Positions 3,001 to 52,314 of a DNA stretch of 64,000 nucleotides are shown here, one piece after another (positions within the stretch are counted from its first letter, which is position 1; each line of letters starts with the position of its first letter). The notes beneath the pieces are model-generated. The model searched no databases, was not told where the DNA came from, and worked only from the letters and a program-made list of their open reading frames with translations. The translations under genes and the position numbers were made by a program. Source of the stretch: Ktedonobacteraceae bacterium (GTDB lineage Bacteria > Chloroflexota > Ktedonobacteria > Ktedonobacterales > Ktedonobacteraceae); NCBI GenBank assembly GCA_039923935.1, contig JBDTBU010000195.1, forward strand, positions 1,843-65,842, given 5' to 3'.

Positions 3001-3603
3001 ATCGTGGCTATTGCTCGCTCGCGGGGATTGCCTGTCGTCGTGTACCGGCCAGGTCGGATTACTGGTCATAGCCAGAGCGGTTTCTGGCGATCTGAGGATA
3101 TCCTGTACCGGATGATGAAGGGTTGCCTCCAGCTTGGCATGTGCCCCATGTTCCCGACGGATAACACGCTGGAAATGACGCCAGTGGATTTCGCGAGCCA
3201 GGCAATTGTTGCTCTATCCAGGCGGAAATCTTCTCTTGGCCAAGCCTTCCATATCTGTTGTCCACCAGGAGCAGAAGCGCGGATTAACGATATCATGAAC
3301 TGGATTACCACTGCTGGCTATCCACTCCAACAAATACCGTATGAAGAGTGGTTCGAGGAGCTGTCTCGCGTGGTCAGTCAGGGACAAAAAAATGAGTTAG
3401 CGGACATTCTGCCTCTGCTCCCTCAGCCTAGTCAATCATCGCAGGAGGCCAAGCAGCCCTTGATGATAGTGCAAGATAACAGGTATACTGTGAAGACACT
3501 GGCCCGCGCTTCGATTACCTGTCCTTCTGTCGATCAGAATTTGCTGCGTACATACGTGTCGTATATGGCGCAAGACAGTTTCATACAAAGTATCACCCAT
3601 TAG
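1..3603 (+). CDS. Non-ribosomal peptide synthetase, last module (C-domain tail, A, PCP, terminal thioester reductase); 5' end lies outside the window
   Basis: Frame 1 is open from nt 1 (FLDLLKRVREAAIGAYEHQDIPFEKLVE, a C-domain C-terminal motif). A-domain cores present: LAYVIYTSGSTGMPKGV, NAYGPTECS, YRTGDLARY, GRVDHQVKLRGYRIELGEIE, PNGKLNR. PCP motif DDFFALGGHSLL (Ser codon 2224-2226). R domain has ILLTGATGFLGTFLL (NAD(P) binding) and YGQSKWVAE (YxxxK). Confidence 0.95.
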   Translation, partial: FLDLLKRVREAAIGAYEHQDIPFEKLVESLQPNRNLSHNPLTQVMFALQNVPQEEVHLPNLSFVTLSNVENTLITGVGGATTGHESQLHRAISENKTAMFDLDMTFWERGDKLVAELKYNTDLFEPETIDRLQEHFLTLLESLVADPTQRIRDTSLLSIQERTLLIEEWNATETPYPLDQLFHEFVMEQAQSTPTALAVSDGQEQLSYQELLTRAEHLAAHLQALGIQAEQEQLLGLYMERSVSWAVTVLAIMLAGGVYLPLDPHHPSSRLRYVLQHAGCQRVLTTRAQATRLGDLLDAPTSVQVYCVEDLATQKACEAYQPVCYAGEHLAYVIYTSGSTGMPKGVMIEHKGMLNHLLAKVEALELSAQDIVAQTASHCFDISVWQLLAAWLVGGQVRIYPEQIAIDPEALLQQTEADAVSVIEVVPSLLRAMLDLLDLASSEQRPSLLDLRWMIPTGEILGTDLVQRWLHYYPHIPLLNAYGPTECSDDVTHHMIAESLEPEALGRAVPIGRALPNLRLYVLDIQQRPQPVGLWGEIYVGGVGVGRGYLADPVRTAQSFVPDPWGSMVGGRLYRTGDLARYRADGNLEFLGRVDHQVKLRGYRIELGEIEQVLHSHTGVRESIVLVREDEPGRQRLVAYIVPQPGENPELEDLQRIAREALPEYMIPSAFVQLEAFPLTPNGKLNRQALPLPAEQDAGQAHEDYVAPRTPLEKQLVDLWSTLLGVERVGISDDFFALGGHSLLTVRLVSEIEKLFGKRLPLASIFQGRTVDALAQLLSRSSESASPWSLVLEMQPQKRDLPAEAMLDLTDCPEVWPDEFNTEPANILLTGATGFLGTFLLADLLKYTKADIYCLVRAKNGEQARQRLQASLEGALQWQPEFSTRIKPVIGDLALPRLGLSEQMQEELAQRIDTIYHNGAQVNMLYPYEELKAANVQGTREILSLATRYRVKPVHYISTLSVFPHKGETRLQYVREQDSLDDFHEHVRGGYGQSKWVAEKIVAIARSRGLPVVVYRPGRITGHSQSGFWRSEDILYRMMKGCLQLGMCPMFPTDNTLEMTPVDFASQAIVALSRRKSSLGQAFHICCPPGAEARINDIMNWITTAGYPLQQIPYEEWFEELSRVVSQGQKNELADILPLLPQPSQSSQEAKQPLMIVQDNRYTVKTLARASITCPSVDQNLLRTYVSYMAQDSFIQSITH

Positions 3604-3637: not shown

Positions 3638-4036
3638 ATGAATCAGCAAAGCCAGCACGAGGAAAATGTCCGTGCGTACCATGGTGAAGGTGAGTATAGC
3701 GCTCCTGGACCAGGAGCGCAGGATGAGAGCTATGCTTATACGCCACAACTCTCTAGAAGCGACGTTGAAGAACGCTTTCAGCCACATGAAGAGTGGAGAC
3801 AAAAAGCCAGCATGGCCCAGCCAGATTTCAGGCAGTCGCTCTCCGCTGGCCAGCGACTAGCCATGGCTATCGTTTCGGTTTCAATACTAGTACCCTTGGT
3901 AGCGATTCTGATTACTGCTGATGTTTCCAGTGAGAATGCTGGCAACCCGCTGCTCATTGGAAGTCGCTTGATAGCGCTGCTCCTGGTCTGCCTGACAATT
4001 ATGGTTGTGAATCTGGCCTTTAACAGGCGTCGTTGA
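3638..4036 (+). CDS. Hypothetical small membrane protein (polar N-terminus, two C-terminal hydrophobic helices)
   Basis: 132-aa ORF 35 nt after the NRPS stop, preceded by aaagaggaacgagacgaATG. Hydrophobic stretches LAMAIVSVSILVPLVAILI and LIALLLVCLTIMVVNL. No recognisable family. Confidence 0.4.
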   Translation: MNQQSQHEENVRAYHGEGEYSAPGPGAQDESYAYTPQLSRSDVEERFQPHEEWRQKASMAQPDFRQSLSAGQRLAMAIVSVSILVPLVAILITADVSSENAGNPLLIGSRLIALLLVCLTIMVVNLAFNRRR

Positions 4037-4076: not shown

Positions 4077-5015
4077 CTATGCTAGCACTGGGATGCCGGG
4101 TAATTCGATCTCCAGACCGATCACTTTGAGTTTCTTGCGTAGCGAGTCACGTCCGTAACGAAAAGATTTCCAGGGGTCATCCCCTTCTGCCAGCATACGC
4201 TGAATCAACTCATCGGGGAGTGTGAGACCTTCAAACGCAATGGGTGCATAGTAGTTGATCGCGTCACGAATCACGCTGGCATAGGAAGCATCGCGCTGGA
4301 GCATATCGCGCAGAAAACGCACGCCGAATAACACATGGCGCGATTCATCACGTGTTAAGGCAGCCATACCGGCGCAGAGTGAAGGGAAGATATGCTCCTC
4401 GCGGAACCGTTCGAGCAGAGCACGTTGACCAGCCAGGGCCATAGTTCCTTCTATGATGAGATGATAGAGCACAACTCCCTCAATCAAGTGGGTAAGGTTC
4501 TGTGGTTCCTGACGAATGCGATTAGCGGTCTCTGGAAGGGCTTCGAGCAGGATATAGCGTGTAGCCGGATTAATGTGCTGCCGTGCGATAGCTAACGATT
4601 CTTCCAGGCTGGTGGCATCAATCTCTAGAACATCGTGGAAAAAACGGTCAAAAAACACAGTATGGCGAGCCTCATCGACAAGCTGGGTTGTGAGATAGAT
4701 GCGCATTTCCTCATCGGGAGCTGCCAACACATAAGGAGCCAGAGCATCAGTGACACAAGCTTCGCCTTGGAAGAAGGTAGCAAGCGTCGCCACATGACTT
4801 GCGCGTTCTTCTTCGGACATATCTTCCCACTGAATGCGATCAGCGATAAAATCAATCTCTTGTGATTGCCACTGCTGGCGTTCCCAACGATAGTAGAGTT
4901 CTCGGTAGGTTGGCAGGTGTACCAGCCCCTGGTCGATACTCTGCAGAATTTCAGCCACAGAGACATCCTGTAACTGTTCCAGGTTGGCATCATCGGCTGA
5001 TATTTCTATAGACAT
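4077..5015 (-). CDS. Ferritin-like di-iron carboxylate protein (RNR R2-like / R2lox-like oxidase)
   Basis: Four-helix di-iron ligand pattern E...EXXH...E...EXXH: FFQGEAC, VDEARH, IIEGTMA, TRDESRH. GGAGAAT Shine-Dalgarno before the ATG. Last gene of the minus-strand operon with the thioesterase and ABC genes. Confidence 0.7.
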   Translation of the reverse strand: MSIEISADDANLEQLQDVSVAEILQSIDQGLVHLPTYRELYYRWERQQWQSQEIDFIADRIQWEDMSEEERASHVATLATFFQGEACVTDALAPYVLAAPDEEMRIYLTTQLVDEARHTVFFDRFFHDVLEIDATSLEESLAIARQHINPATRYILLEALPETANRIRQEPQNLTHLIEGVVLYHLIIEGTMALAGQRALLERFREEHIFPSLCAGMAALTRDESRHVLFGVRFLRDMLQRDASYASVIRDAINYYAPIAFEGLTLPDELIQRMLAEGDDPWKSFRYGRDSLRKKLKVIGLEIELPGIPVLA

Positions 5016-5023: not shown

Positions 5024-5815
5024 CTATAAACTGGCCCCCAAAGGGACATCAGCAGTCTTTGTCACTAGGGCTTGGGAGATGATTTGTAAGACGGCTGCTT
5101 GTGCTGGTCGAATAAAGAGATGGTTACCAAGCAACATATGAGTGGCGAAGTCCTGGCTGGTCTGTTTACGCCACGTTTCAAGCTTCGCCTGTTGTACACG
5201 TTTATCCTGCTGACCACCTAGCACAGTAATAGGGCAAGCAAGCGGCTCCTGAGCATGAAATTGATAGGATTCACAGACTGCGAAATCGGCACGTAGGATA
5301 GGTAACAAGAGTTGTCGCAGTTCTTCGTTTGCCAGAATCTCCGGGCTAGTCCCATCTAGTTCGAGCAACGTCTTCATCAGTGCGGAATCAGAGAGCGCAG
5401 ACTCAGGAAGTGCCTGACGCGGCTCATCAGAAGGTGTCTCAGGGGAGCGGTAGGCCGAGAGAAACAGGTGTTCAGGCAAACGAGCCCCTTGCTGGCGCAG
5501 TTGGCGCGTGAGTTCAAAACTGACGAGGGCACCCATGCTGTGGCCAAAGAAGGCATAAGGCATGTCGAAGTAGGGTTGGAGAGCCTGTGCCAACGCTTGA
5601 ATCAGTCCATCAAGACGTCGCAAGGGTGGCTCCTTGACCCGATTCTCGCGTCCCGGAAACTGCACTGGATAGACATCAATCTCTGGTGCAAGGAGGCTAA
5701 TCCAGGGGTAGTACGTAGAAGCACCACCCCCTGCGAAAGGAAAACAGAACAGGCGTACGCGGGCGGCTGGATTGGGCCTGGCACCGAAGATCCAGTTCTT
5801 TGTAGGAGGGATCAT
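5024..5815 (-). CDS. Type II thioesterase (alpha/beta hydrolase, NRPS/PKS editing type)
   Basis: LFCFPFAGGGAS N-terminal motif, GHSMGALVSFE nucleophile elbow (GxSxG), C-terminal GNHLF His motif. Start placed at ATG 5815 (AAGGAAAG upstream). Alternative starts 5836 and 5854 overlap the upstream permease stop. Confidence 0.85.
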   Translation of the reverse strand: MIPPTKNWIFGARPNPAARVRLFCFPFAGGGASTYYPWISLLAPEIDVYPVQFPGRENRVKEPPLRRLDGLIQALAQALQPYFDMPYAFFGHSMGALVSFELTRQLRQQGARLPEHLFLSAYRSPETPSDEPRQALPESALSDSALMKTLLELDGTSPEILANEELRQLLLPILRADFAVCESYQFHAQEPLACPITVLGGQQDKRVQQAKLETWRKQTSQDFATHMLLGNHLFIRPAQAAVLQIISQALVTKTADVPLGASL

Positions 5816-5828
5816 ACTATTGCTTTCC

Positions 5829-8183
5829 TTACTCATAACGCAGTGTCTGGGCAATCTTCACACGCGTTGCGGCGAAGACTGGGCCAATACATGCCAGCGA
5901 GGCCAGTACGAAGATGGCCACCAACATCCAGATCAGGTAGAAAGGATTGAAAGCGAAGGGCACTGGTGCCAAAAGTTTGGCCTGAATCTGCAAGAGACCC
6001 CAGGAAGCTGGGAAGCCCAAGATTAAAGCGAGCACCCAGGCCAGGCCACCGAGTGTGACCCCCTCGGCCCAGAAAACCTGTGCCACTTTTCTGCTCGCCG
6101 CGCCCATTGAGCGCAAAATGCCGATTTCACGCCGCTTTTCTAGAACACTCATCACCAGGGCATTGGCCAAACCAACCGAGCCAACCAGCGCGATAATAAT
6201 TGCCACAAGGTCGAGCAAGGTATAGATGGTCTGGTATTTGCTCTGGGCCTGTGCAATCTGGTTTTGTGCTGTGGTAATGTTTGCTAATAGCCCGGCATTG
6301 CTCATGGCTGCATCAACCCGATGGGCCAGAGCATCAATGTCTGCCTGTGTGGGAGCATGGATAGTCGATTGGATCATCACTTTCTGTGAATAGTCGCCAG
6401 GCATATTGAAGAGCGCATTAATCTGGGTAATTGGCGCGAGCAGGACACCAAAGTTGCCAGGACCGATATTGCTAAAGTCGCGGGCAACACCTATAATATG
6501 CCATTGGACTGTGTGCAGGCCAAGGGAAAAGGTAATGGTATCGCCGATTTTCAGCCCAGACTTATCTGCGGCATCCTGACTGATGATAACCGCGTTCTTG
6601 TCGTCATTGGTAAACCAGCGTCCAGCAGAGATGTCCCGCTGGTAGAGTTGGGTGTCGAGCTGCACTCCGGTGAGCGCGGCATCGCCCCAATGTGTTGTGG
6701 CCTTATCCTGACTGAAGCTCTCGATGCGTCCTACGCCTGGTACGGATGAGAGAACTTGCTGGAAGCGACTGAGCGGGATTGCGTCGTCTAGTGAGACCAT
6801 TGTATCAAAGTGATACACGGTGTAGACCTGGTTCAAGAAGGTGTTAAACGAATAGTTGGCTGTCTGCACTGCCAGAAACGCTGCGCCAGAAACCCCCAGG
6901 ATCAGCAGGGTCAGTCCCGTGCGCAAGCGTTTGCGAAAGACACCACGCGTGCCAAATTGGAAGGTCTGAGGCAACCACCCAAAAAGAGCACGTGCGATTG
7001 TGCTCCAACCACGATCCCCCTGGTTAGCAGTATTTTCCAAGCCGTAGCCGCTCAGGGCTTGCTTCACGGTTATACGTGTTCCCAAGTACACGGGTATCAG
7101 CGCAGCGAGCAAAGGTGTGCCGATGCCAACGATTGCCGCTTCAAGAATCTGCCAGGGCGCAACCTGGAGCGGCCCAATATCTAGAGAAACCAGCTTTCCC
7201 AAGTACTGGGCCAGCAAGTAGCCACCCGCAGTGCCTACTACGATACCAAGTGCAGTACCGATGATAGCATACACGCTGACCAGTGCGAGATAGTGACGCA
7301 TAATCTTGCCACGTCCGCCTCCAACGGCCTTCATGGTTCCAATGGCCTGAACCTGTTCTGTAATCAGAGCCATGATAGTACCTAAGAGCAAAATGACGCT
7401 TAGCAGGATAGCGATGACCGAAAGGACGTCCATAATCCCAAACAGACCATTGGCAATCTGGGAAACGCTATCGTCGCGTCCGACATTGGAGCCAAGAATG
7501 GGCGTCTTGTGCTGATCCATTACTTGCGAAAGCTGGGTCAGCGTTTGATAGCGTTGGTCATAGTTTTCGACACGTAGGGCGAAATTGGTCACGCCTGAAC
7601 GATTGAAAAACGTCTCAAAGGATGGTTCATTCATATACCCATAAGCACGGCCAGCCAGAGCGACCTGAGGAAGCCCCTGAGTGACCTCAAAGCCTGAGAT
7701 GGTCAGAGGCTTATAGGTGGTGCCTACTTGGATTGAGACGGTATCGCCGATATGGATATTCGTGAGTGTGTGATCACTTTCATCCAGGATGACCTGGCCT
7801 GGTCCAGGCAGGTGTCCTTCAACAAGCTTGAAACGCCCGATCTTCATCTGCTCGAAGTCGAGGATGCCCAGAACCTGGATTACTTTGTGATCCTGGCCGA
7901 TAGCCCAGCTTGTGACAATGCTACCCTGAGCCTGGACGCTTAACACATTGGGCTGCTGTTGAATGATAGCGGCCAAATTCGGTGAGGTTGGCGCAGTGTA
8001 GATCTGCATATCGGCTTGAGATGTGATGTTTGAGCTAAATTCCAGGCTGCTTTTGAACTGGCTTGAAGCAATGTTAATTGCTGATAGGCCAATAATCCCG
8101 ATGGCAATGCCGATCACTGTGAGAAGCGTGCGTGCTTTTCTATGTGAAATGTCCCGAAAAACTTTCTTTCGTAACGCGGTCAT
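5829..8183 (-). CDS. ABC transporter permease, MacB/FtsX type with two FtsX domains
   Basis: 784 aa. N-terminal RKARTLLTVIGIAIGI helix, large extracytoplasmic domains, and two C-terminal 3-TM FtsX-like blocks including EKRREIGILRSMGA. Directly downstream of a MacB-type ATPase. Confidence 0.85.
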   Translation of the reverse strand: MTALRKKVFRDISHRKARTLLTVIGIAIGIIGLSAINIASSQFKSSLEFSSNITSQADMQIYTAPTSPNLAAIIQQQPNVLSVQAQGSIVTSWAIGQDHKVIQVLGILDFEQMKIGRFKLVEGHLPGPGQVILDESDHTLTNIHIGDTVSIQVGTTYKPLTISGFEVTQGLPQVALAGRAYGYMNEPSFETFFNRSGVTNFALRVENYDQRYQTLTQLSQVMDQHKTPILGSNVGRDDSVSQIANGLFGIMDVLSVIAILLSVILLLGTIMALITEQVQAIGTMKAVGGGRGKIMRHYLALVSVYAIIGTALGIVVGTAGGYLLAQYLGKLVSLDIGPLQVAPWQILEAAIVGIGTPLLAALIPVYLGTRITVKQALSGYGLENTANQGDRGWSTIARALFGWLPQTFQFGTRGVFRKRLRTGLTLLILGVSGAAFLAVQTANYSFNTFLNQVYTVYHFDTMVSLDDAIPLSRFQQVLSSVPGVGRIESFSQDKATTHWGDAALTGVQLDTQLYQRDISAGRWFTNDDKNAVIISQDAADKSGLKIGDTITFSLGLHTVQWHIIGVARDFSNIGPGNFGVLLAPITQINALFNMPGDYSQKVMIQSTIHAPTQADIDALAHRVDAAMSNAGLLANITTAQNQIAQAQSKYQTIYTLLDLVAIIIALVGSVGLANALVMSVLEKRREIGILRSMGAASRKVAQVFWAEGVTLGGLAWVLALILGFPASWGLLQIQAKLLAPVPFAFNPFYLIWMLVAIFVLASLACIGPVFAATRVKIAQTLRYE

Positions 8184-8220: not shown

Positions 8221-8958
8221 TTAAGATGACACGTCACGTCGATTGACAATCCGGCCATCAAGAAGATCGATACCACCATCGGCACGCTGGGCTAGGTCAC
8301 GATCATGCGTCACATAGATGATGGTTTTCCCCTGGCGACCCAAATCTGCTAGTAAGTCGAAGACCTGCTGCGCGTTCTGGGAATCCAGATTGCCAGTCGG
8401 TTCATCAGCTACCAACACCGGTGGGTTATTCACCAGGGCACGCGCAATGGCGACGCGTTGTTGCTGCCCTCCCGAAAGCTCGCTGGGCAGGCGCTTCATA
8501 TACTGCTCCATCCCGACCAGTTGCAGACATTCCTCGGTACGCACGCGCCACTGGCGACGGGGTAGCACTTGCCCCAGTTCGAGCGCCATCAATACATTCT
8601 CCTGGGCTGTCAATGTGGGCAAGAGTTGGAAGAACTGAAAGACAATGCCAACATTGTGGCCACGCCACTTTGCTAGACGATTCTCGCTCATCTTCTGCAG
8701 AACTTTGCCGTCAAAGAGCACCTGACCTGAACTAGCACTGTCGATGCCAGTCAAGATGTTGAGGAGCGTTGATTTGCCACTGCCTGACGGTCCATTGATA
8801 GAAAAAAGTGTCCCTTTTGGGATCGAGAAGGAGAGAGCATCAAGGATCACTGTTTTGGTGAAACGACTTGTAATCACCTTTGAAACATTCTCAACGCTGA
8901 CCTGAATCGTATCAGCAGCTTGTGCACTATGTGCAGGTGGAGGTCCAACAGTTGCCAT
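8221..8958 (-). CDS. ABC transporter ATP-binding protein (MacB/LolD-like)
   Basis: Walker [13 protein letters not shown], signature [15 protein letters not shown], Walker [14 protein letters not shown]-loop YVTHD. Confidence 0.92.
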
Positions 8959-9092: not shown

Positions 9093-9881
9093 CTAGTACT
9101 GGCTCAGGGAACCCTGTTGCTTGGCAACCCGTTCACTGTATTTGAAGAGCACCCATCCGATAATCAAGTACACGGAGGAGTTCACAATTAACCAGATCAG
9201 ACTCTTATTATCCCACACTGTTATAAGCGATTGCCCGTTTAATAAGACATTGCGCAACACATCGATGCCCTGCGTAATGGGGAGTGTTCTGGCAAAAAAC
9301 GCCAGCCAGGGTGGGAAGTGAGTAATTGGCAGAAGGGAGCCAGTTAGGAAGAGTAGCGCATTCTGGATGAGATCGGCGAGCGCATCAACCTGTTTAAAGA
9401 TCAGAGTCAGTCCACCAAGGATGAGGGCGAAGCCGAAAAGTCCAGCCAAAGTCAAGCCCATAATCACCAGGCCTTCCCAACGCAGAGGAATGGAAATACC
9501 AAGGAGCAGGGCCAACGCAATGCTTGTCAACAAAACCATGATGGTTGTGGTGAGTAAGGTAGCCAGAACACGCCCTAAAATCAGTATCTCCGTGCGTGCG
9601 GGCGTCATGTACATCTGCTCAAGTGTGCCCGCCTGAGCTTCCCCAACGAGGTCCGCACCAGTGCTCATAATGATGATACGTGCATAGAGCCAGACGACAT
9701 AGCCAAGAAACAGCACGGTTAATTGTTGGGGATTGAATTGACCATTGCCCAGAAAAAAGCTCGCACCAACGAAAATGATGCCAATCACCAACAGTTGAGT
9801 GAGAACGTTAAATTTGTAATCCCAGATGATTAAGAAACGTTTGTACGTTTCATTGAACATAGCTAGCAATGAGATGCTCAT
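9093..9881 (-). CDS. ABC-2 type transporter permease
   Basis: Six hydrophobic helices, about 262 aa from ATG 9881 (MSISLLAMFNETYKRF). The start overlaps the end of the upstream ATPase by 32 nt. The longer 323-aa reading adds a non-membrane N-terminal extension and was not used. Confidence 0.75.
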   Translation of the reverse strand: MSISLLAMFNETYKRFLIIWDYKFNVLTQLLVIGIIFVGASFFLGNGQFNPQQLTVLFLGYVVWLYARIIIMSTGADLVGEAQAGTLEQMYMTPARTEILILGRVLATLLTTTIMVLLTSIALALLLGISIPLRWEGLVIMGLTLAGLFGFALILGGLTLIFKQVDALADLIQNALLFLTGSLLPITHFPPWLAFFARTLPITQGIDVLRNVLLNGQSLITVWDNKSLIWLIVNSSVYLIIGWVLFKYSERVAKQQGSLSQY

Positions 9882-10911
9882 GTTGTTCTCCCTTCTCGCC
9901 TTCACTGGCACTTTTCTCTTTCTCTCCAAGAATCTGCTCACCACCGTCCAGCAACTGGACAAAAATCTCTTCCAGATTGGGCTGGACGCGTGTGACAGAC
10001 AACAGAGGAAGATCGTGGCTATGGATAGTGTTGAGGTATGTATACAGGATGCTCTGGTCAGCAATGCTTCCAGTCAGCGTGGTCTCATCATTTTCCGTGG
10101 CGATAGTTAAGCCCTCAAACCAATCTACATTCTGCACATCTCCTTTGAGTCGGATCTGATAGTGTTCCTGGCGGAAAAGATGTAACAGTTCTGCTAATGG
10201 TCGATTCGTCAGCAGACACCCCTTACGTATGATAGCCACGCGGTCACAAAGTTCTTCAGCCATATCCAGTTGGTGGGTAGTGAGTACAACGGTTTTCCCT
10301 TGCTCTTTGGTCAAGCGCTGAATCCATTCTTTGACGGTACGGGCAGCTTGGATATCCAGGCCCAAAGTTGGCTCGTCTAGTAGAACAATCGACGGATTAC
10401 CGATTAGAGCACAGGCGATAGCTACTTTTTGTTGCATACCACGAGAAAAGGTACGAATGGGATCGTTGCGTCTCCCCCAGAGATCGAGTTCGCCTAGCAA
10501 CTCTTTGGCGTGCGCTTTGAGTTCTTTACCCCAACAACCTTTCAGGTGTCCGAAGTACATTAGATTTTGCCATGCTGTCAGACGCCAATACACGTTGCGA
10601 GTTCCTTCCAGGACCGCGCCTATCTGGTACATGGCCGCGCGACGTTCACGTAAAACGTCATGACCACCAATGCGGACCTGCCCGGTCGTGGGGGTGACCA
10701 GTCCACACATCATTTTAATGGTGGTGGTTTTTCCAGCACCATTGGCACCAAGAAAACCAAAAACCTGCCCAGTCTCGACCACGAGATTGAGGTTGTCTAC
10801 AGCTGTAACTGTTTCTCGGCGAGCAACTGGGTAGACTTTACTCAGCCCTGTGATCTCAATCGCGGCGGGTGATAGACCGCTTGTTTTCATAGTGGAATGC
10901 TCCTTCTTCAA
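9850..10911 (-). CDS. ABC transporter ATP-binding protein (ABC-2/DrrA-like)
   Basis: Walker A GANGAGKTTTIKM, signature FSRGMQQKVAIACAL, Walker B VLLDEPTLGLD, H-loop TTHQ. Confidence 0.9.
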   Translation of the reverse strand: MKKEHSTMKTSGLSPAAIEITGLSKVYPVARRETVTAVDNLNLVVETGQVFGFLGANGAGKTTTIKMMCGLVTPTTGQVRIGGHDVLRERRAAMYQIGAVLEGTRNVYWRLTAWQNLMYFGHLKGCWGKELKAHAKELLGELDLWGRRNDPIRTFSRGMQQKVAIACALIGNPSIVLLDEPTLGLDIQAARTVKEWIQRLTKEQGKTVVLTTHQLDMAEELCDRVAIIRKGCLLTNRPLAELLHLFRQEHYQIRLKGDVQNVDWFEGLTIATENDETTLTGSIADQSILYTYLNTIHSHDLPLLSVTRVQPNLEEIFVQLLDGGEQILGEKEKSASEGEKGEQHEHLIASYVQ

Positions 10912-11139
10912 CTTTCATTACTCAATAATCGCCTTATCATAAGGGTACTTTGCCAATAGGGCGCTGTCATGTTGAAGGGGTAGTATTTTTTATACGGGAA
11001 GGAGGGTAATATGATTGATGCTAAACATCGTAGAGAAAATACGCTTGCCAGGGCATGACAATACGCTCTCTGACAAGTATCTTTTGAAAGAGGGTTTTTT
11101 GACAGTTGCTTGTTCATACGTTTGGAAAGGCAATCGAGT

Positions 11140-13794
11140 ATGCATAATGATCAGAGCCACGCCGGGTTCCTGGCTTTGCAGATAGAGCAGATAGGGGACA
11201 GTAACCTGGGACAAGCAGCCGCTGGATTGCCAGAGCACTTGGTTCCCCTGGATGCTGAGCAGTGGGATCTCTGGCGCTTTGTCTGTTTGCGAGGCGCTGG
11301 TTTCCCGGCCCGGCAGGCGCTCGATCTCTCGGCTCCCGCGTGTACCGCTCTTGTAGATCAGCTTATTTTAGCCGAAGAAGAGTATACGCGCACACAGGCT
11401 GCTACGCTGGAAGCACTCAACAGCGAACTGATGTATGCGACTGGAGAGCGACATGCGCAACTTGTACAAGCCTTTCGAACCATCAGCAAACTTCGCCCTC
11501 CGCAAGCATTTTCACTCGCGATCCCTGCTTGTGATGGGATAGATGCCTTACAAGTCGTTTATGAACGTCTAGTCAGGCTTCAGACGGAACTGCCAAACGC
11601 TTTTGAAGCTGCGATGCTGACTATAGCGCGTGTGGTACAGACGCTGGCTGGCGATGATCGCTTCCGAGAAGCCGTGACATGGCAGAACCGCCAAGCGCTC
11701 CAGACTGGGTTTGAAACGCTTTTACGCTCTACACCTGAGCAAATTGTGAACCAGGCCAAACGGCGCAGGAATGGAACCCTGGTCGCGAACTATATCCAGC
11801 GTTATGCGCTCAAAAATGATAGTATTGGCTTCTTTGGTCCAATAGGCTGTGCTACACTTACTGCATCGGATGTGGCTATTTCAGTTTGTCCTGGTCCTCA
11901 GCTTCTGGAGAAGCGTACCGTCTATTTCGAGGGCTGGTGCATGGAAGAATTGGCCGCAGCTTTGGTGAGAGAGAATCAACAGTTGCTCTGCTGGTGCGCA
12001 CCGCGTCAAATGCCACATCTGTATCTTGCTGGCACGCAACTCGCGCTCCCTTTTGCCCCTCCAATTAAGCTCTCCATCAGTCAAGCAGCAGTATTTGAAG
12101 CCTGTACGGGCTTTCACTCAGCGCGATCAATCGCCAGAAGGCTGCTCCTCAATCATTCCACAAACGGATTGCAAAATGAGGCCCAGGTCTACACCATTCT
12201 CGATCAGCTCTGCGCCAGCAAACGTATTGTATGGGCGCTGGAGATCCCTCCTGAGGGCAATGCTCCCGAACAAGCATTACGCTACTGGCTAGAGCGCATC
12301 GAAGAGAAGGATCTACGTGAGAAGTCCCTGGCCTCCCTGGAACGCCTGGAACAGGCCCGCACTGCGGTTTCTCATGCCGCTGGAGATCCCGTCCGGCTGG
12401 ATGAGGCTCTGGCAAAATTAGAGACAGAGTTTGTTGAACTGACCAGTAAGACGGCAACGCGTGCGGAGGGGAAAACCTATGCTGGTCGTACGCTTGTCTA
12501 TGAAGATTGTCGTCGGGCTATCGATGTGACTTTTGGGCCTGACCTGGTTCGGGCTATGCGCGAACCTCTGCCCCTGCTACTCACGAGTGCGCGTTGGTAT
12601 ACCTATGAAATTGCGAAGCTCTATGAGCAAGCTTTCATCGATGCTTTTCTCGAATTGTCCTCTGACTCTGACTCTGCTACGGTCAATCTCACGGATTTCT
12701 GGCTGTGGATGCAACCATTTTTCTATGATGATGAACAGCGTCTCAGCGACCTCATCCTACCGGAGTTTCAGCAGCACTGGCTGGAGATTTTCGCGCTCAC
12801 AGACGAGCAGCGGAATCTGCATCAGCTCGTGTACCGTGCCAGCGACTTGCGGGAGCGTGTTCTCCAACGTTTTTCTGCGCCAGCTCCAGGCTGGAATGCA
12901 GCCTGCTATCATAGCCCTGACCTATTACTTGATGCCAAAGATGTTGAGGCCATTCAGAGGGGAGATTATCAGGTCGTTCTAGGTGAGTTGCATATTGCTA
13001 TGAATACGCTACAAATTACGGCCTTTCTTGCTCAACATCCTACTCCTGAGGACATCCTCCAGGCAGTAGCCCTTGATGTGCCCGCACCGCGCGTGTTGCC
13101 AATCCTCTCGAAAGATCTGTTTCCTATTTACCGGCTCCGTCCCTCCCTAGTAACGCCCAAAGATTTTTACCTGGTGTATACACCAGATGTGTGCGCCCCA
13201 ATTGCAACTCCTGCAACTGTCTTAACGCTGAGTTCCCTGGTGGTTGAGGAGAGGGATGGTAGGCTCGTTGCGCGAACACGCGATGACCTCTACTGTTTCG
13301 AGTTGATCGAAGTATTTGCCGAATTCCTCTCACGCTTGATCTATGGGTCCTTTAAAATGTTCCCACCAAGCAAACACATGCCGCGAATAACTATCGATCA
13401 GATGGTCGTGAGCCGCGAGGCTTGGTATTTCGCGCCCCAGGATCTTGTTTTTGCAAATGAGAAAACTCCCCTGGAGCGCTTTATAGCAACTCGGCGCTGG
13501 GCGCAAAGAAATGAGATGCCGCGCTTCATTTTTGTCAAAGTGGCAACCGAGCCGAAGCCATGCTTTATTGATTTTGACAGTCCAATGTATGTTGAGGTGT
13601 TCTTAAAGATGGTGCGTCAGGATATGCGTAAAGATCCTGCAATGCTCTCGTTGGCGATTACTGAGATGCTGCCAACTCCTGATCGGCTCTGGTTGCAGGA
13701 TAGAGATGGTGAGCATTATACCAGTGAATTACGTTTTGTTGCTGTTGATCACGTCTCTTGTTATGCGAGTAAGGAGGCTGAAATGCGCATATAG
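11140..13794 (+). CDS. Lantibiotic-dehydratase (LanB) N-terminal glutamylation-domain protein with no elimination domain (small LanB / PEARL-like)
   Basis: WDLWRFVCLRGAGFPA and YALKNDSIGFFGPIGCA resemble LanB N-terminal motifs (NisB LRSTPFGLFS region). MPRITIDQMVVSREAWYF plus MPRFIFVKVATEPKPCFIDFDSPMYVEVFL matches the block that ends the glutamylation domain (NisB IPRLVFDEIVISPAKWKIW ... EFYIVNGDNKVYL). Only about 45 aa follow it. ATG 11140 preferred over TTG 11110. Confidence 0.75.
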   Translation: MHNDQSHAGFLALQIEQIGDSNLGQAAAGLPEHLVPLDAEQWDLWRFVCLRGAGFPARQALDLSAPACTALVDQLILAEEEYTRTQAATLEALNSELMYATGERHAQLVQAFRTISKLRPPQAFSLAIPACDGIDALQVVYERLVRLQTELPNAFEAAMLTIARVVQTLAGDDRFREAVTWQNRQALQTGFETLLRSTPEQIVNQAKRRRNGTLVANYIQRYALKNDSIGFFGPIGCATLTASDVAISVCPGPQLLEKRTVYFEGWCMEELAAALVRENQQLLCWCAPRQMPHLYLAGTQLALPFAPPIKLSISQAAVFEACTGFHSARSIARRLLLNHSTNGLQNEAQVYTILDQLCASKRIVWALEIPPEGNAPEQALRYWLERIEEKDLREKSLASLERLEQARTAVSHAAGDPVRLDEALAKLETEFVELTSKTATRAEGKTYAGRTLVYEDCRRAIDVTFGPDLVRAMREPLPLLLTSARWYTYEIAKLYEQAFIDAFLELSSDSDSATVNLTDFWLWMQPFFYDDEQRLSDLILPEFQQHWLEIFALTDEQRNLHQLVYRASDLRERVLQRFSAPAPGWNAACYHSPDLLLDAKDVEAIQRGDYQVVLGELHIAMNTLQITAFLAQHPTPEDILQAVALDVPAPRVLPILSKDLFPIYRLRPSLVTPKDFYLVYTPDVCAPIATPATVLTLSSLVVEERDGRLVARTRDDLYCFELIEVFAEFLSRLIYGSFKMFPPSKHMPRITIDQMVVSREAWYFAPQDLVFANEKTPLERFIATRRWAQRNEMPRFIFVKVATEPKPCFIDFDSPMYVEVFLKMVRQDMRKDPAMLSLAITEMLPTPDRLWLQDRDGEHYTSELRFVAVDHVSCYASKEAEMRI

Positions 13795-13897: not shown

Positions 13898-14122
13898 ATG
13901 ATAAGAGATGAAAAAGAAGATACTACGATTTACAAAGTAGTTGTAAATCACGAGGAGCAATATTCGATCTGGCCTATTGAACGTGAGAATCCATCGGGTT
14001 GGAGAGATGGAGGGAAAAGTGGGATGAGGGAAGAGTGTCTGTTGCATATTAAAGAAGTATGGACAGACATGCGTCCGCTTAGTGTGAGAGAGAAAATGCA
14101 GCAGTCAGCTACGAAAGGATGA
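13898..14122 (+). CDS. MbtH-like protein (NRPS adenylation-domain partner)
   Basis: 74 aa with the family signature [24 protein letters not shown] ... [14 protein letters not shown]. Confidence 0.92.
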
Positions 14123-14132: not shown

Positions 14133-15182
14133 ATGATAAGCAGAGATGAGGATGCTATTCTGTACCTTTGCAGGCAAGATGTAGAGCACCTCTGTACAAA
14201 AATTGATAGCATCGCTGTTCTACGAGAGGTTTTTTCACTCCATGCTTCTCGTCAAACCATTCTTCCCGACGAGGCCTATCTTGGTTGGACAAACGTTCAC
14301 CAAGAAAATGTCAGGAGCTTGAATATGCCAGCCTATGTGGGGGGAACCTTCGATATAGCTGGTACTAAAGTCATCAATGGCAACATTTCCAATCCCACAC
14401 GAGGTGTTCCGCGTGCAAGCGGCATGACCTTATTGCTTGATCCAATTTCAGCACGTATTTGCGCAATTATGGAAGGAGCCTACCTTTCTAGCTTGCGTAC
14501 TGCCAGCGTAACAGCCCTCGCAGTAGATTTGCTGAAAGGCGATGATATTCAGTGTCTGGGTATTATTGGTGCTGGAATTCTCGCTCAAGCGCATATTGAA
14601 CTGCTATTGCGGCATCTACATTCATTAGAGACAATTTATATATATGATACGAATCAACAGCGCGTTGTAGAATTGGGACTACTTCTGGCCCCTTTGCTTG
14701 AAGCACATCATGTAGTTTGGCAATGTATGCTATCTGCGGAGGCTGCTATTCGTTCGGCACAGTTAATCATCCCCGTGACAACAACAACAACAAGTTACAT
14801 TCCTTTTGTCTGGCTTCAGGCGGGAGCAATCGTGGTGAATGTTTCGCTAGATGATGTTATGCCAGATGTTATTTTGCAAGCGCAGAGTGTGGTCGTCGAT
14901 GACTGGTTTCTCGTCAGAAACGATACTCGTCGTTTGCTGGGTCGGATGTATCATGAAGGGAAAATTATTGGGCCAGATGACGAAAGAGAACCAATGAATG
15001 GGCAAAGGAAAATCAATGCCCAACTTGGGGAGCTTGTGCTAGAAACAAAGGTTGGTCGCCGTGATCGGCAGGATATTATCCTTGTAAATCCTTTTGGGCT
15101 GGCGATTGAAGATGTCGCCCTGGCACAACGGGTCTATCAGAAGGCTCAGGAACTAGGTGTGGGAAGAAAGCTCGCCCATTAG
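14133..15182 (+). CDS. Ornithine cyclodeaminase / mu-crystallin family enzyme
   Basis: Family blocks GTKVINGNISNPTRGVPRASGMTLLLDP, LSSLRTASVTALAVDLL, Rossmann LGIIGAGILAQAH and NPFGLAIEDVALA. Starts 11 nt after the MbtH stop. Confidence 0.8.
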   Translation: MISRDEDAILYLCRQDVEHLCTKIDSIAVLREVFSLHASRQTILPDEAYLGWTNVHQENVRSLNMPAYVGGTFDIAGTKVINGNISNPTRGVPRASGMTLLLDPISARICAIMEGAYLSSLRTASVTALAVDLLKGDDIQCLGIIGAGILAQAHIELLLRHLHSLETIYIYDTNQQRVVELGLLLAPLLEAHHVVWQCMLSAEAAIRSAQLIIPVTTTTTSYIPFVWLQAGAIVVNVSLDDVMPDVILQAQSVVVDDWFLVRNDTRRLLGRMYHEGKIIGPDDEREPMNGQRKINAQLGELVLETKVGRRDRQDIILVNPFGLAIEDVALAQRVYQKAQELGVGRKLAH

Positions 15183-15223
15183 AGTCCCGCAGAATCGAGT
15201 TGCTTTGTCGTGAAAACGATATT

Positions 15224-15457
15224 TTACGCCAGGAGCGGGCTTACCAGCACACGCACATCAGGTGCACCTTGCGGTTCGGGAACATGACACTCACTCACGG
15301 AAATCGCGGAGAAATCAGGCAGGTTCGTAGGTGCTTGAGCGTTCATCTCTTTGAGGAAAGCACGCGTTTGCAGCAATGATTCTGCCGTAAGAGCCAGTGT
15401 AGGAAACAGATCAAGCATCGCAACAAGTTCTGCGTTTACAAGATTTCTCGTTGTCAT
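15224..15457 (-). pseudogene. Truncated N-terminal fragment of an alpha/beta-hydrolase (esterase/lipase-like)
   Basis: A strong AGGAGG SD and ATG at 15457 give MTTRNLVNAELVAMLDLFP...SECHVPEPQGAPDVRVLVSPLLA. This resembles the lid/N-terminus of hydrolase-fold-3 esterases but stops after 77 aa, before any HGGG or GxSxG motif. Confidence 0.35.
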
Positions 15458-15689
15458 AGGATCCTCCTTGTGAAATGATAGAAAGGAAACGTCTATCTCG
15501 CCCAATTGGTGCTCTTTGTTGAGGTGAGATAATACCTGAGATCGTGTGCCTCTGTTGCTGCTCAAAGCCAACTGAGCAGCAACAGAGGCATTATATGGTA
15601 AGGGAAAACCCCTCATAGCTCTTTTCTGCTATCTCCTCTCGCTAATGTTTCTGGAAATCATGCAGGATCTCGCGAAAGTGAGATTGGAA

Positions 15690-16561
15690 AGTGAAAAAGT
15701 GAACAGTCCCCTTTTGAAGTAATTTTCCACTGTGATCGTAGAAGACAGTACATCAATCATATTCCCATCGGCTCTTGCAGAAATATGGAAAAAATGTGGG
15801 TGAGAGGAAAATACAAGTAATACAGCAATAAAAGCGTCTGTCCGTTGGGATGTAGTAACTGGTAAATTAGATGGTTCTCGACTTACCAATGGCCGTATGA
15901 ATGATCACAAGAGTCTGTTTGAGATAGAAGAATGACCAGAAGGATCAGTGTATATTGCTGGCTTTGGATTTTTTGCGATTGACCGATTGTGCCGTATAAC
16001 AAGAGAGAAAAAGGAAAAGATATTTGTCACACGTTTACAATCAAAAATGAACGTATATCATCGTTGTGGACATCGCGTTCATCTCGGATAATGGTTATTA
16101 CCAATATCCACCGTAAATGGGCGAAATATTCGGAAATTCTGGTGCTACTGCGGTTGCGCTGGCAAATCGAACGGCTCTTTCGGCTCTGGAAGGAAGATGC
16201 AAAAATTGATGAATGGCGCACAAAGAAACCATATCGTATTTTGTGTGAATTCTATGCAAAAACATGTGCCATGATTATCCAACAGCCTTTCATACAGAAG
16301 GGGTGTTGGCTCGATCCATTTCGGAGTCTTGTCAAAGCAGCGGACTCCCTTCGCCGTGAATGTAATCGAATTATGATCGCTTTTTACGAGGGAAATCTTG
16401 AAAAGATGGTGCAATCTCTTTTGCATACATTGCAATCTAGATGTCGTGTTGAACGTCGAGCCGCCTATCCCAGCACAGCCCAGCTTTTGTTAGATGGCCT
16501 GGATTGGCAGTTCGAATTGCTCTTATCCGCAAGAGGATCAAGGCGACATTGCCAATGTTAA
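15690..16561 (+). pseudogene. Decayed IS4-family (DDE) transposase
   Basis: One frame reads VEDSTSIIFPSALAEIWKKCG*, AIKASVRWDVVTGKLDGSRLTNGRMNDHKSLFEIEE* and EGSVYIAGFGFFAIDRLCRITREKKEKIFVTRLQ..HLG*, so at least three in-frame stops. A frame change follows into VITNIHRKWAKYSEILVLLRLRWQIERLFRLWKEDAKIDEW (YREK-region motif). The N-terminal part is missing. Confidence 0.7.
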
Positions 16562-16647
16562 GCGAATGTTAATATACTGCACTTTGCTAACTAGATAAAG
16601 ATAATCGGCGTTGCTAGATGTAGGTGGTAGATTTCGGCACCCTGTCT

Positions 16648-16699
16648 GTTATCTGCTAATATGTTCCACTCCGAAAAGTGAAACATATTAGCAGATAAC
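16648..16699. repeat. Long inverted repeat / hairpin (23-bp stem, 1 mismatch, 6-nt loop)
   Basis: GTTATCTGCTAATATGTTCCACT - ccgaaa - AGTGAAACATATTAGCAGATAAC, read directly from the sequence. Confidence 0.9.
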
Positions 16700-17053
16700 T
16701 ATACCTTACTTCAAACTAAAAATCAAGTATTTATGGATTTATATGGCAAAAAGCTATAAAATGCTCGTACCCTAGCGTGAACCCATTTTACCACTTACTG
16801 CGAACAAATTTTTACTGACGAAAGCTAATAGAGTCTTCAATAGAATTCTGGTTGCTTTGCAATAACGCGAAAACTGCTCAGTTTACCTCTCAAAAAATCG
16901 GTTCAGAAGCACATTTATAGGGCGGGAAATTCTATAAATAATATATTTATGAGTTCAATAAAGGTTGCTTTTCCCGGCAGAGAAGTACTACACGCCCTTT
17001 TTCTGTGAGAGAAGTGGAATGAGGCAAGGTAGCAAGCGGGGTCATCAACCTTT

Positions 17054-17108
17054 ATTTTGCCAGCTTATCTGACAGCTTATAAACAGATTTTGCCAGCTTA
17101 TCTGACAG
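17054..17108. repeat. Tandem-spaced 22-nt direct repeat (period 33 nt)
   Basis: ATTTTGCCAGCTTATCTGACAG at 17054-17075 and again at 17087-17108, both perfect copies. Confidence 0.9.
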
Positions 17109-17273
17109 TTATTGGATCGAATTGGGGAGGAGTGACCCGAACAGCGACGAACAAGCACATCATTGTGAATCGGCCTGAGAATTGCCTTCATATGGCTTTC
17201 CCAAAATACGCTACTGCCGCATCACATCTGTCTGGAGAGGATGTGATATGATATTTAGGTAGAAAAAACTTTG

Positions 17274-17294
17274 CATTAGCTTGACAAGCTAATG
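17274..17294. promoter_or_regulatory. Perfect 21-bp palindrome overlapping a TTGACA hexamer, about 120 nt upstream of the SpeD-like gene (candidate operator)
   Basis: CATTAGCTTG-A-CAAGCTAATG. TTGACA lies at 17281-17286. Confidence 0.5.
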
Positions 17295-17411
17295 TAAAAT
17301 ATCTTTCAGTGTTGATTTTTGAAAACACAGTGTGTGTTGGAAGCACTGCCAGTATTGGCAGTGGCGGTGGCACGTCACTTTGGTACAAAATAAGAGGAGA
17401 AAACAAAAAAG

Positions 17412-47410: not shown

Positions 47411-48052
47411 TCATTCTTGAATAATCAAGCGTAGTTTGCGTTTGAACACCTTCTCAAAGAGATCGGCCTTCTCATAGGCGTGCCCCATCTCTAGATCCAG
47501 GTCGGCTAACGGGCGCACTTGCAATGCGATGGTCCAGGTTTCGTCGTTGTAGAGTTCTTCGGGTGCGGAGAGATGCAATACGCGACCATCGTGGTTATAG
47601 TCCAGCGCGTCGGCGATGCGTATGAGCGCAGACAGTGCCGAGACTCGCTTACGTGCAGCCCTGTTCAACACAGCATATTCCGCGTGAGATGTGCTGGGCA
47701 GTGCTCGACGGTGATAACGGGCAATACAGGCGATTTCATGGCGTTCTGTCTCGGTGAAATCGGGCAACGGTGTCTCTTTAATCAGGCGATAGCTGTGTTT
47801 ATGATGGCGGCGTAGCTCGATCAGCATACCGGTATTATGCAAGAAGGCCGCGCGTGTGAGCAGACGTTGCGCCTCTTCATCCAGCTTGTGCAGCGGGCGG
47901 GTTGCGCAAAACAGTTCACCTGCCAGCCGCTCGACTTGGCGTGCGTGCGGCCAATCTTCCACCTGTAGCCCTCCACTGAGATACAATTCCTCAGACGTAG
48001 GTTCCGAACGTTGCCGCCAATCTAAATCCTCGCTAGGAAACGAGGTCATCAT
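47411..48052 (-). CDS. HD-domain protein resembling the C-terminal domain of Ppx/GppA phosphatases
   Basis: AAFLHNTGMLIELRRHHKHSYRLI and IARYHRR blocks. Confidence 0.65.
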   Translation of the reverse strand: MMTSFPSEDLDWRQRSEPTSEELYLSGGLQVEDWPHARQVERLAGELFCATRPLHKLDEEAQRLLTRAAFLHNTGMLIELRRHHKHSYRLIKETPLPDFTETERHEIACIARYHRRALPSTSHAEYAVLNRAARKRVSALSALIRIADALDYNHDGRVLHLSAPEELYNDETWTIALQVRPLADLDLEMGHAYEKADLFEKVFKRKLRLIIQE

Positions 48053-48138
48053 AAAACTCTCCCTTTGTATTTTTTCTCCGAGTATAGGTTAGAACTTCTG
48101 TTGATCTTCATAAACGCGAATTTGCTACGAACATCTTT

Positions 48139-51785: not shown

Positions 51786-52113
51786 AAAAGATCTTCCTTT
51801 CCAAAGGTTTTTTATGCGCAAAGCTGCACACACCAATAGAGTACCATAATTCTGGGCTATTGGGAACAAACGTACAAAACCTGGCCTTTCGGTTTTCCTT
51901 GTTTGCCAGCAACTGCGGCAGGAAAAACAGTGGGAGGTGAAAATAACCCAATCTCCTGAAGTGGGTTACCGCCCTATGCGATCTCGCCTTTAGCGACTGC
52001 GATACGTACTCTTGCGCATCCCCAATGAGATGCGCAAGATCGCTCTCGGGCTAAAACCCTGAGAAGGATGCCCTCTTTGCAAGGTTTCTCAGGTAGCACA
52101 GACCTCTATCTAT

Positions 52114-52314
52114 TTAACTAGCTTCACGCCTTTTTTCAAGCCAGTGTTGAAGGTCCTCTTTAGATACCCGTACGGCTCGCCCAAACTTTATTATAGGAAG
52201 GTTTTCTTTCCAAATCAGTTCATAGACTTTCGTTCTCCCTAGGCTGAGTACTTTTGCAACTTGCGGAATCGTTAAAAGCATTTGGAAGGACGTTGGTTGG
52301 TCATGTGGTTCCAT
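52114..52314 (-). CDS. Excisionase-family HTH DNA-binding protein
   Basis: LLTIPQVAKVLSLGRTKVYELIWKENLPIIKFGRAVRVSKEDLQHWLEK matches the excisionase/MerR-like HTH_17 pattern. Confidence 0.8.
   Translation of the reverse strand: MEPHDQPTSFQMLLTIPQVAKVLSLGRTKVYELIWKENLPIIKFGRAVRVSKEDLQHWLEKRREAS

Follow-up and report, generated by a model that had tools for sequence, protein, structure and literature searches.

Described PEARL systems and the Ktedonobacteraceae locus

Peptide aminoacyl-tRNA ligases (PEARLs) share the glutamylation-type fold of the lanthipeptide dehydratases (LanBs) and carry no elimination domain. Those involved in the synthesis of 3-thiaglutamate (TglB) and of pyrroloiminoquinones (AmmB1-4), as well as BhaB1/5/7, extend the C-terminus of an adjacently encoded ribosomal scaffold of 40-60 aa. 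Besides these, about 2,000 gene clusters encoding nonribosomal peptide synthetases (NRPSs) or polyketide synthases (PKSs), mostly actinobacterial, include "lantibiotic dehydratases" devoid of any precursor (Yu and van der Donk, 2024, ACS Cent Sci, PMC11212132). SnaE from the threopeptin assembly line of Stackebrandtia nassauensis is required to add Thr to the carboxylate of a nonribosomal ureidopeptide, according to genetic evidence, this carboxylate being left free, beyond the reach of assembly-line extension, by a condensation (C) domain with the motif EHHxxHDG (PMC11212132). SinB1 and SinB2 of the sinefungin cluster act in vitro on a small nucleoside with Ala-tRNA (bioRxiv 10.64898/2026.05.21.726688). 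The present analysis deals with a gene of a Ktedonobacteraceae bacterium located at 11140..13794(+) in a 64-kb window, i.e., the whole stretch of 64,000 nucleotides analysed, taken from contig JBDTBU010000195.1 (GCA_039923935.1). Judging from its sequence, the 884-aa product is, with fair probability, a SnaE-type NRPS-associated PEARL, which would draw on an aminoacyl-tRNA to append a single residue to the nonribosomal product. To our knowledge, SnaE is the only NRPS-associated PEARL characterised so far, and by genetics only.

SnaE and the window protein are both stand-alone PF04738 proteins (845 and 884 aa, respectively) encoded in an NRPS cluster without precursor peptide, and they have in common the segments FREAV(A/T)WQN, Y(A/I)QRY..KND(T/S)IGFF and YTSELRFVAV. 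Both clusters also include an MbtH protein, a stand-alone thioesterase and two transporters, and snaO, beside snaE, has a parallel in the acyl-CoA dehydrogenase gene found beside the PEARL gene in a 78% relative (L001). The two systems nevertheless differ in several respects. The window cluster stems from Chloroflexota, whereas SnaE comes from Actinobacteria. Its NRPS is reductase-ended, with adenylation (A) domains of predicted diamino-acid type and visible C domains that are not ureido-forming. No PKS module is seen in the window species, whereas the threopeptin line is an NRPS-PKS, and the window cluster adds an R2-like oxidase and an SbnB-like enzyme. The coupling of a PEARL to an NRPS, regarded as unusual in the first-pass annotation of this DNA, is not unprecedented since it was published in 2024 (PMC11212132). 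A literature search on this particular Ktedonobacteria cluster family found no paper, and the 884-aa protein is an uncharacterised member of a described class, outside its actinobacterial examples. Any real novelty would lie in a possible acceptor logic other than ureido chain reversal.

The scaffold-dependent TglB, BhaB and AmmB enzymes resemble the window protein by their glutamylation-type fold without elimination domain, by the ExR and QRxxxK(N/C)(D/E) motifs and by a presumed ATP/aminoacyl-tRNA chemistry. They depend on a neighbouring scaffold gene, whereas no conserved one is found in the window, and their signature-segment scores are about half of those of SnaE. SinB1 and SinB2 show that a scaffold peptide is dispensable in the family as they work with Ala-tRNA on small non-ribosomal molecules. 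Their acceptor, however, is a nucleoside amino acid, their cluster is without NRPS, and they are likened to the window protein by description, not by sequence. PEARLs accepting small molecules are candidate tools for template-free peptide ligation.

On the dehydratase side, TbtB (thiomuracin, 6EC7/6EC8) and GodF (goadsporin, 9JHQ) come closest in structure (whole-chain TM 0.66-0.69), belong to the same length class and have no fused elimination domain. They differ in using Glu-tRNA to esterify Ser/Thr, in needing a separate elimination protein and a precursor peptide, in being only 14-16% identical, and in having a tRNA motif of the R...K/R form and no ExR Arg. NisB, MibB and MadB possess a homologous N-terminal glutamylation domain (PF04738), but they continue with a C-terminal PF14028 domain of about 300 aa and work with LanA precursors and LanC, none of which is present in the window.

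Domain content, signature motifs and predicted fold

The open reading frame (ORF) starts with an ATG at 11140 and stops at 13792-13794, and an in-frame TTG at 11110 is an alternative start that would lengthen the protein by 10 aa. All the landmarks quoted in the first-pass annotation are found in the translation, i.e., WDLWRFVCLRGAGFPA, KNDSIGFFGPIG, PRITIDQMVVSREAW, PRFIFVKV and CFIDFDSP, the distance from the last of these blocks (residue 815 of 884) to the C-terminus being 69 aa instead of the 45 aa or so that had been given. The sole Pfam match is PF04738 (Lant_dehydr_N; 91.9 bits, E 3.7e-26, cutoff 28). The end of the model (position 648 of 649) maps to about residue 820 and leaves 64 aa up to the C-terminus. 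Neither PF14028 nor any other second family is detected at E<=10, either in the whole protein or in its last 184 residues scanned again, so the glutamylation domain is present and the elimination domain absent, as had been proposed.

The surroundings agree with this picture. Pfam scans of about 50 ORFs of the window (roughly those of at least 100-150 aa) give no Lant_dehydr_C or LANC_like match, and the earlier statement that the window holds no elimination-domain gene and no LanC-like cyclase stands for these ORFs. Likewise, neither the window nor the annotated related loci yield a YcaO, a precursor gene, a PF14028 protein or LanC, and neither PF14028 nor LanC occurs in those annotated with Pfam (L001-L004, L015-L020 and L100-L101). 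Of the features of a full-length LanB system, the locus therefore displays the N-terminal glutamylation domain, whereas the elimination domain, the LanA precursor and LanC are missing. The public annotation, like Pfam, labels the protein a lantibiotic dehydratase, and genome-mining pipelines will mislabel the cluster as a lanthipeptide/NRPS hybrid and mispredict its product by one amino acid.

Two motifs carry the assignment to PEARLs. The first, YIQRYALKND (residues 218-227; 11791..11820, +), is the motif that binds the tRNA 3' end, in its PEARL form QRxxxKND. Residues Y218, Q220, R221, Y222, K225 and N226 are invariant in the 38 homologues (39-78% identity) of alignment A1, and the segment lines up with SnaE, TglB and BhaB in Fig. 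S12 in the supporting information of PMC11212132. The second, the ExR motif E863-L-R865 (13726..13734, +), has its Glu and its Arg invariant in the same alignment, and these residues align with E801/R803 of TglB and with the "SELR" of SnaE. In PEARLs, this motif serves the ATP-dependent phosphorylation of the acceptor carboxylate. Indeed, the ExR residues, which have been tested by mutagenesis, are required for this step in TglB and have E813 and R815 as counterparts in BhaB7, an enzyme that also needs Y205 and R208, which count among the residues contacting the 3' CCA end and 5'-phosphate of the tRNA, for activity. In a set of 264 family members, to which SnaE itself does not belong, ExR is kept in 230 and QRxxxKN[DE] in 256.

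In the two regions compared in the published Fig. S12, the dehydratases, unlike PEARLs and SnaE, possess neither the ExR Arg nor the QR..KND form (PMC11212132). The tRNA-binding motif thus reads QRxxxK(N/C)(D/E) in PEARLs and SnaE, R...R/K...P(F/Y) in dehydratases and YIQRYALKNDSIGFF in the window protein. As for the C-terminal tail, PEARLs and SnaE (MYTSELRFVAVN) carry ExR, the dehydratases are without the Arg, and the window protein displays HYTSELRFVAVD. Over these two published segments, 96 residues in total and the only ones on which the likeness to SnaE was measured, the local alignment scores of the window protein reach 107.5 (segment 1) and 77.5 (segment 2) with SnaE, compared with 53-60 and 33-58 with scaffold-dependent PEARLs and 20-49 and 12-28 with true LanBs. 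Because of these motif forms and segment scores, the protein is classed as a SnaE-type PEARL and not as the half of a dehydratase. The suggestion of a PEARL-like, aminoacyl-tRNA-dependent enzyme tied to an NRPS and distinct from lanthipeptide dehydratases, already made in the first-pass annotation, gains from the joint occurrence of ExR and QRxxxKND, the lack of an elimination domain and a conserved NRPS context.

The AlphaFold2 (AF2) model built on A1 (mean pLDDT of 89.8; predicted TM score, pTM, of 0.88) is matched best in Foldseek by TbtB (6EC7/6EC8; E 3e-26, target-relative TM 0.69) and GodF, both of which are glutamylation-only. In the case of the full-length LanBs MibB, NisB and MadB, only the N-terminal part superposes on the model (Foldseek E of about 1e-20 to 1e-22). 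The modelled fold is thus a glutamylation fold without a second domain. Searched against PDB sequences, the family profile from A1 retrieves TbtB as the sole LanB match (E 1e-10), and the window protein as a single query retrieves no LanB. A winged-helix region resembling a RiPP recognition element (RRE) is tentatively placed at residues 291-360 (12010..12219, +), with three strands followed by helices. It is drawn from a weak profile match to PqqD (5SXY, E 0.09) and from the secondary structure of the AF2 model, in which strands span residues 295-310 and helices 313-359.

Conserved cluster, assembly line and candidate acceptors

PEARLs of this type belong stably to a conserved Ktedonobacteria cluster with predicted diamino-acid A domains and a reductase-ended NRPS. 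This cluster recurs around PEARL homologues at 99% identity (L019, GCA_041691195.1), 76-78% (L001 and L021-L023), about 50% (L002-L004 and L024-L028) and 43% (Dictyobacter alpinus, L015). The conserved set includes the reductase-ended NRPS, the R2-like oxidase, a type II thioesterase, MbtH, exporters of the MacB and DrrAB types and the PEARL, whose gene is divergent from the DrrA gene, and an SbnA/SbnB pair is often added. Homologues at 42-43% identity in Herpetosiphonaceae, in Pyrinomonadaceae and on one further contig of 1.26 Mb also lie at the ends of NRPS clusters. A metagenome scan contributed 79 further loci. An A domain is found within 10 kb of the PEARL gene in 33 of the 50 loci that span at least 12 kb, and at least 7 of the other 17 represent the same cluster type with the NRPS just past the fetched stretch. 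The whole family amounts to 1,924 clusters at 50% identity (E<=1e-30), the close relatives being abundant in soil Chloroflexota and Acidobacteria. Very often, the PEARL gene sits directly 3' of the terminal NRPS ORF, which ends in a thiolation (T) domain, in T followed by about 300 residues, in C, or in a reductase (R) domain. The sister cluster L020 has the same core, with PKS genes upstream, and no PEARL gene at the matching site next to DrrA. The PEARL thus behaves as an accessory function, as expected of a tailoring enzyme. A role in loading, which had been proposed as an alternative to tailoring, is unsupported, and tailoring or extension is favoured.

The metagenomic loci L037, L060 and L079 each display three or four PEARL-matching ORFs. 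Three tandem full-length PEARL genes stand beside an NRPS in L037. No NRPS domain is within reach in L060 and L079, where the matches may be separate genes or split ORFs, and these two loci may be multi-PEARL "pearlin" clusters of the ammosamide type.

The assembly line itself is only partly visible. Its terminal gene is truncated at the window's 5' end, and the 3' part (1..3603, +) encodes C-A-T-R according to Pfam, the complete protein, available in L013 and L019, measuring 1,526 aa. In these two loci, which belong to the same species, the line extends to at least three modules (...A-T / C-A-T / C-A-T-R). Manual reading and alignment to a reference give the three A domains the codes DIWEMTADD, DIWVITADN and DIWEITADD. 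The terminal module in the window has the code DIWEITADD(K) and the C-domain motif MHHIVSDA, and its reductase domain is apparently intact (motifs TGATGFLG and YGQSK). At A-domain positions 278, 330 and 331, acidic residues point to a basic side chain. The codes resemble DIWELTADDK, which we take to be that of 2,4-diaminobutyrate (Dab). A literature search on this Stachelhaus code returned nothing. By their sequences, the A domains would be of diamino-acid type, with 2,3-diaminopropionate (Dap) as the likely substrate given the SbnA/SbnB-type genes of the cluster family. Contigs L013, L019 and L100 all break inside near-identical A domains, and the start of the line, one module or more, is outside the window. 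No match was obtained with the upstream NRPS's 85-aa tail as the query, and the NRPS fragment searched against GTDB representative genomes retrieved only distant NRPSs.

L100 (2..9624, 54% NRPS identity) holds tandem reductase-ended NRPSs, [...A-T-R][C-A-T-C-A-T-R], followed by a stand-alone ketosynthase. The second of these lines begins with a C domain and its donor must therefore come from elsewhere.

Most probably, the acceptor is a carboxylate at a non-thioester chain end, for instance one left by a ureido-forming C domain in the unseen first module, by analogy with threopeptin and with peptide aldehydes of the antipain type. An antipain-like layout A-T-C_urea-A-T / C-A-T / C-A-T-R is possible, and two observations support it. 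The PEARL gene of L062 adjoins an A-T-C(EHHFVHDG)-A-T NRPS, which is the SnaA architecture, and a ureido-type C domain also occurs near that of L051. L058 and L064 are independent recurrences of reductase-terminated lines beside PEARL genes. The EHHxxHDG pattern is matched in L051 and L062 only, the window cluster and its nearest relatives having no match.

By analogy with characterised PEARLs, we infer the use of ATP and tRNA by the 884-aa protein, as well as the identity of its acceptor. The scaffold would be provided by the adjacent assembly line, with its diamino-acid A domains and reductase release. ATP would be bound in an ATP-grasp-like site including E863, R865 and a further acidic residue, probably D594 or E616. 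The enzyme would then phosphorylate a free carboxylate borne either by the finished nonribosomal product or by a carrier-bound intermediate. The alpha-amine of an aminoacyl-tRNA, whose 3' CCA end would be held by Y218, R221 and K225, would attack the acyl phosphate. Hydrolysis of the tRNA ester would finally yield the scaffold lengthened by one proteinogenic amino acid.

Several points weigh against this SnaE-type reading. On the side of the assembly line, release by the reductase yields an aldehyde or an alcohol and leaves no C-terminal acid. Both visible C domains have canonical motifs (IMHHIVTDG and MHHIVSDA) instead of the ureido type EHHxxHDG, and the codes of the three visible A domains are diamino-acid-like, so the available DNA predicts no free carboxylate. 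As for the antipain-like layout, if the partial first gene of L019 were a simple A-T loader, the next C domain should be of the ureido type, whereas it is actually canonical. On the side of the enzyme, the comparison with SnaE spans the 96 residues mentioned above, and the third phosphorylation residue (E542 in TglB, D558 in BhaB7) is tentatively matched by D594 or E616, both invariant. The modelled RRE-like fold, being retained, would suggest a ribosomal peptide substrate just as well. Finally, the dependence of SnaE itself on ATP and Thr-tRNA was deduced from homology and not in vitro (PMC11212132).

Other acceptors, scaffolds and reactions

The clade formed by Ktedonobacteria, Herpetosiphonaceae and Acidobacteria might use a second, hitherto undescribed acceptor logic instead of ureido reversal, either terminal extension or off-loading, or else joining of the amino acid to a Dap-rich, reductively released peptide through one of its carboxylates or Dap side chains. 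This remains a tentative possibility, which we hold to be rather less probable than its contrary. Whether nonribosomal PEARLs invariably act after ureido "chain reversal" or have additional acceptors could be tested in this clade, and a second logic, if true, would be a new wiring of the translation machinery into nonribosomal synthesis.

Among the specific alternatives, an unlikely one is that the PEARL acts as a terminal "module", lengthening from a tRNA a carrier-bound acid or an acid released by a thioesterase and so helping to off-load the peptide, instead of working on the N-terminal side. Such an arrangement is suggested by two family representatives (P0341 and P0354) that are C-A-T-PEARL fusions with the PEARL domain at the C-terminus, and by many loci (L049, L051, L086 and L099) in which the PEARL gene overlaps a T-ended NRPS ORF without release domain or comes after it within 250 bp, at times within a few bases. 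In the Herpetosiphonaceae locus L016, a terminal C-A-MT-T NRPS (MT, methyltransferase) precedes genes of the PALP and MFS families and the PEARL gene, and neither an R-domain nor a thioesterase match was detected in this NRPS, three of whose Pfam families are unlisted. The stand-alone thioesterase of the window could furnish the free acid. However, the terminal module here has an apparently intact reductase and a reduced C-terminus offers no carboxylate, the PEARL gene is 7.5 kb away and divergently transcribed, and the retained ExR favours a free carboxylate over a thioester as the substrate.

It is quite improbable that the protein works as a classical PEARL on a scaffold peptide ("pearlin"), the appended residue being modified on this scaffold, with the R2-like oxidase and the SbnB-like enzyme as possible agents, and then freed as a non-proteinogenic NRPS building block. 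All the PEARLs characterised before 2024 act on scaffolds in this way, the RRE-like region is retained, and a precedent for tiny ribosomal peptides feeding NRPSs is given in a preprint (bioRxiv 2024.07.12.603347). A candidate scaffold stands in the divergent intergenic control region (10912..11139), which holds a conserved palindrome, CCTTATCATAAGG (10932..10944), a partly palindromic motif, CGTAGAGAAAATACG (11029..11043), a promoter-like site (11055..11083) and an upstream open reading frame (uORF) of 15 codons, MIDAKHRRENTLARA (11011..11058, +). This uORF has a strong Shine-Dalgarno sequence, GGAAGGAGGG, lies 82 bp upstream of the PEARL gene and keeps a fixed HRRENTxx(R/K)A end behind a variable N-terminus. 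Nevertheless, it is maintained as an ORF only in the clade with 76-99% PEARL identity, and neither the clade at about 50% identity nor Dictyobacter has it, the cluster being otherwise kept there. Its core overlaps the CGTAGAGAAAATACG motif and abuts the promoter-like site, and so resembles an operator. In L041 and L002, the + strand shows only the reverse-strand reading of the core motif (KRIFST and NRIFPT, respectively), suggesting from the sequence that the motif lies inverted in these loci. The three differences between the uORFs of the window and L019 are all nonsynonymous, whereas the PEARL proteins are 98.5% identical.

The uORF region is therefore probably an operator or a leader, and that it encodes a tiny scaffold peptide is conceivable. 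Among the loci of about 50% identity, no conserved small-ORF scaffold peptide is found; among the close ones, every frame is conserved. A scaffold-dependent route is further disfavoured by the lack of a protease gene in the cluster at the level of Pfam annotation of the neighbours, and by the signature segments, which are nearer to SnaE than to scaffold-dependent PEARLs.

Dap is an aza-analogue of serine. Its side-chain amine might thus attack an aminoacyl-tRNA in an ATP-independent transfer of the LanB type, giving a stable N-beta-aminoacyl-Dap for which no elimination is needed, a reaction that we consider very unlikely. It would fit with the fold, which is that of the glutamylation enzymes, with the Dap/Dab-like A-domain codes of the window cluster and L016, and with the frequent company of SbnA-like (17 of 89 loci) and SbnB-like genes (16 of 89) in the PEARL clade, some of these genes being immediately adjacent on short contigs (L042, L048, L088 and L097). 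However, the invariant ExR would be superfluous in an ATP-independent transferase, the tRNA motif is of the PEARL form and not of the LanB form, the co-occurrence of the Dap genes may reflect common descent of the sampled clusters, and such a transfer is without precedent.

Lastly, the protein is hardly to be seen as the glutamylation half of a split dehydratase making dehydroalanine or dehydrobutyrine with an elimination partner encoded elsewhere, as Pfam, the public annotation and the nearest structures (TbtB and GodF, both split halves) could suggest, since no PF14028, LanC, YcaO or precursor occurs in the 64-kb window or the annotated related loci, the ExR Arg and the QR..KND tRNA motif are present, and the identity with TbtB is just 16%.

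Neighbouring genes and other features of the window

The MbtH-like, ornithine cyclodeaminase (OCD)-family, divergent exporter and NRPS genes that had been assigned around the PEARL gene are each confirmed by Pfam. Downstream, a 74-aa MbtH-like protein, a helper of A domains conserved in the related clusters (13898..14122, +; PF03621, 74.5 bits), is followed by a 349-aa dehydrogenase of the OCD/SbnB family (14133..15182, +; PF02423, 127 bits; TIGR03944 SbnB, 223 bits, under the cutoff of 327). The PEARL and MbtH genes are 103 bp apart and the MbtH and OCD genes 10 bp apart, and no terminator-like site occurs on the + strand in between. The operon that the PEARL gene was said to head with them is thus plausible from the short gaps, co-transcription itself being inferred. 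The SbnB-like enzyme probably supplies Dap. Its gene is paired with an SbnA-like PALP gene in L002, L015, L020 and L100, and tblastn finds no SbnA remnant in the 64-kb window. Either the supply of Dap relies on a gene located elsewhere, or the SbnB-like enzyme uses another substrate.

The cluster ends after 15.2 kb, with a transposase remnant, lower G+C and genes of primary metabolism beyond. Region 15200..17400 has a G+C of about 0.45 and includes a C-terminal fragment of a DDE transposase (15989..16561) and an unassigned 130-aa ORF (15224..15616, -), suggesting an insertion or a rearrangement at the cluster edge, which may account for the absent SbnA.

Upstream of the PEARL gene and on the opposite strand, the exporters include a DrrA-type ABC ATPase (9850..10911, -; PF00005; TIGR01188 drrA, 245 bits), whose start is probably near 10890 as in the 346-aa orthologue of L019, and an ABC-2 permease of the DrrB type (9093..10064, -; PF01061 and PF12698), whose start is probably near 9881 as its orthologues have 262 aa. 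They are followed by an ABC ATPase of the MacB/LolD type (8221..8958, -; PF00005, 125.9 bits) and by a MacB-type permease with duplicated FtsX and MacB_PCD domains (5829..8183, -; PF02687 and PF12704). The type II (stand-alone) thioesterase comes next (5024..5854, -; PF00975, 159.5 bits), and then the R2-like ligand-binding oxidase, a ferritin-like di-metal protein (4077..5015, -; PF00268, 55 bits; NF006200, 141 bits, under the cutoff of 194), which is kept in every cluster of this type.

A conserved protein of 132 aa (3638..4036, +) is encoded directly 3' of the terminal NRPS gene, as it is in L001, L019 and L022, and L027 carries a 45%-identical copy. Its N-terminal half is acidic or disordered, two hydrophobic helices are predicted at its C-terminus, and Pfam gives no match. 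This protein may be an immunity or export accessory. As a small protein with two hydrophobic C-terminal helices, it was ruled out as a scaffold peptide.

Farther along the window, a gene for a Ppx/GppA phosphatase with a CHAD domain appears to be split over three ORFs (47411..50126, -), encoding Ppx-GppA and the first CHAD part (48729..50126), the remaining CHAD (48139..48756), and Ppx-GppA domain III with HD (47411..48052). This split may reflect frameshifts or a pseudogene. Two genes for tyrosine recombinases (phage integrases) are found at 50568..51869(-) and 53162..54304(+), with a helix-turn-helix (HTH)/NB-ARC gene (STAND NTPase; 54552..55889, -) beside them. The G+C is lower (about 0.47-0.48) across 50568..55889, which is probably an integrated mobile element.

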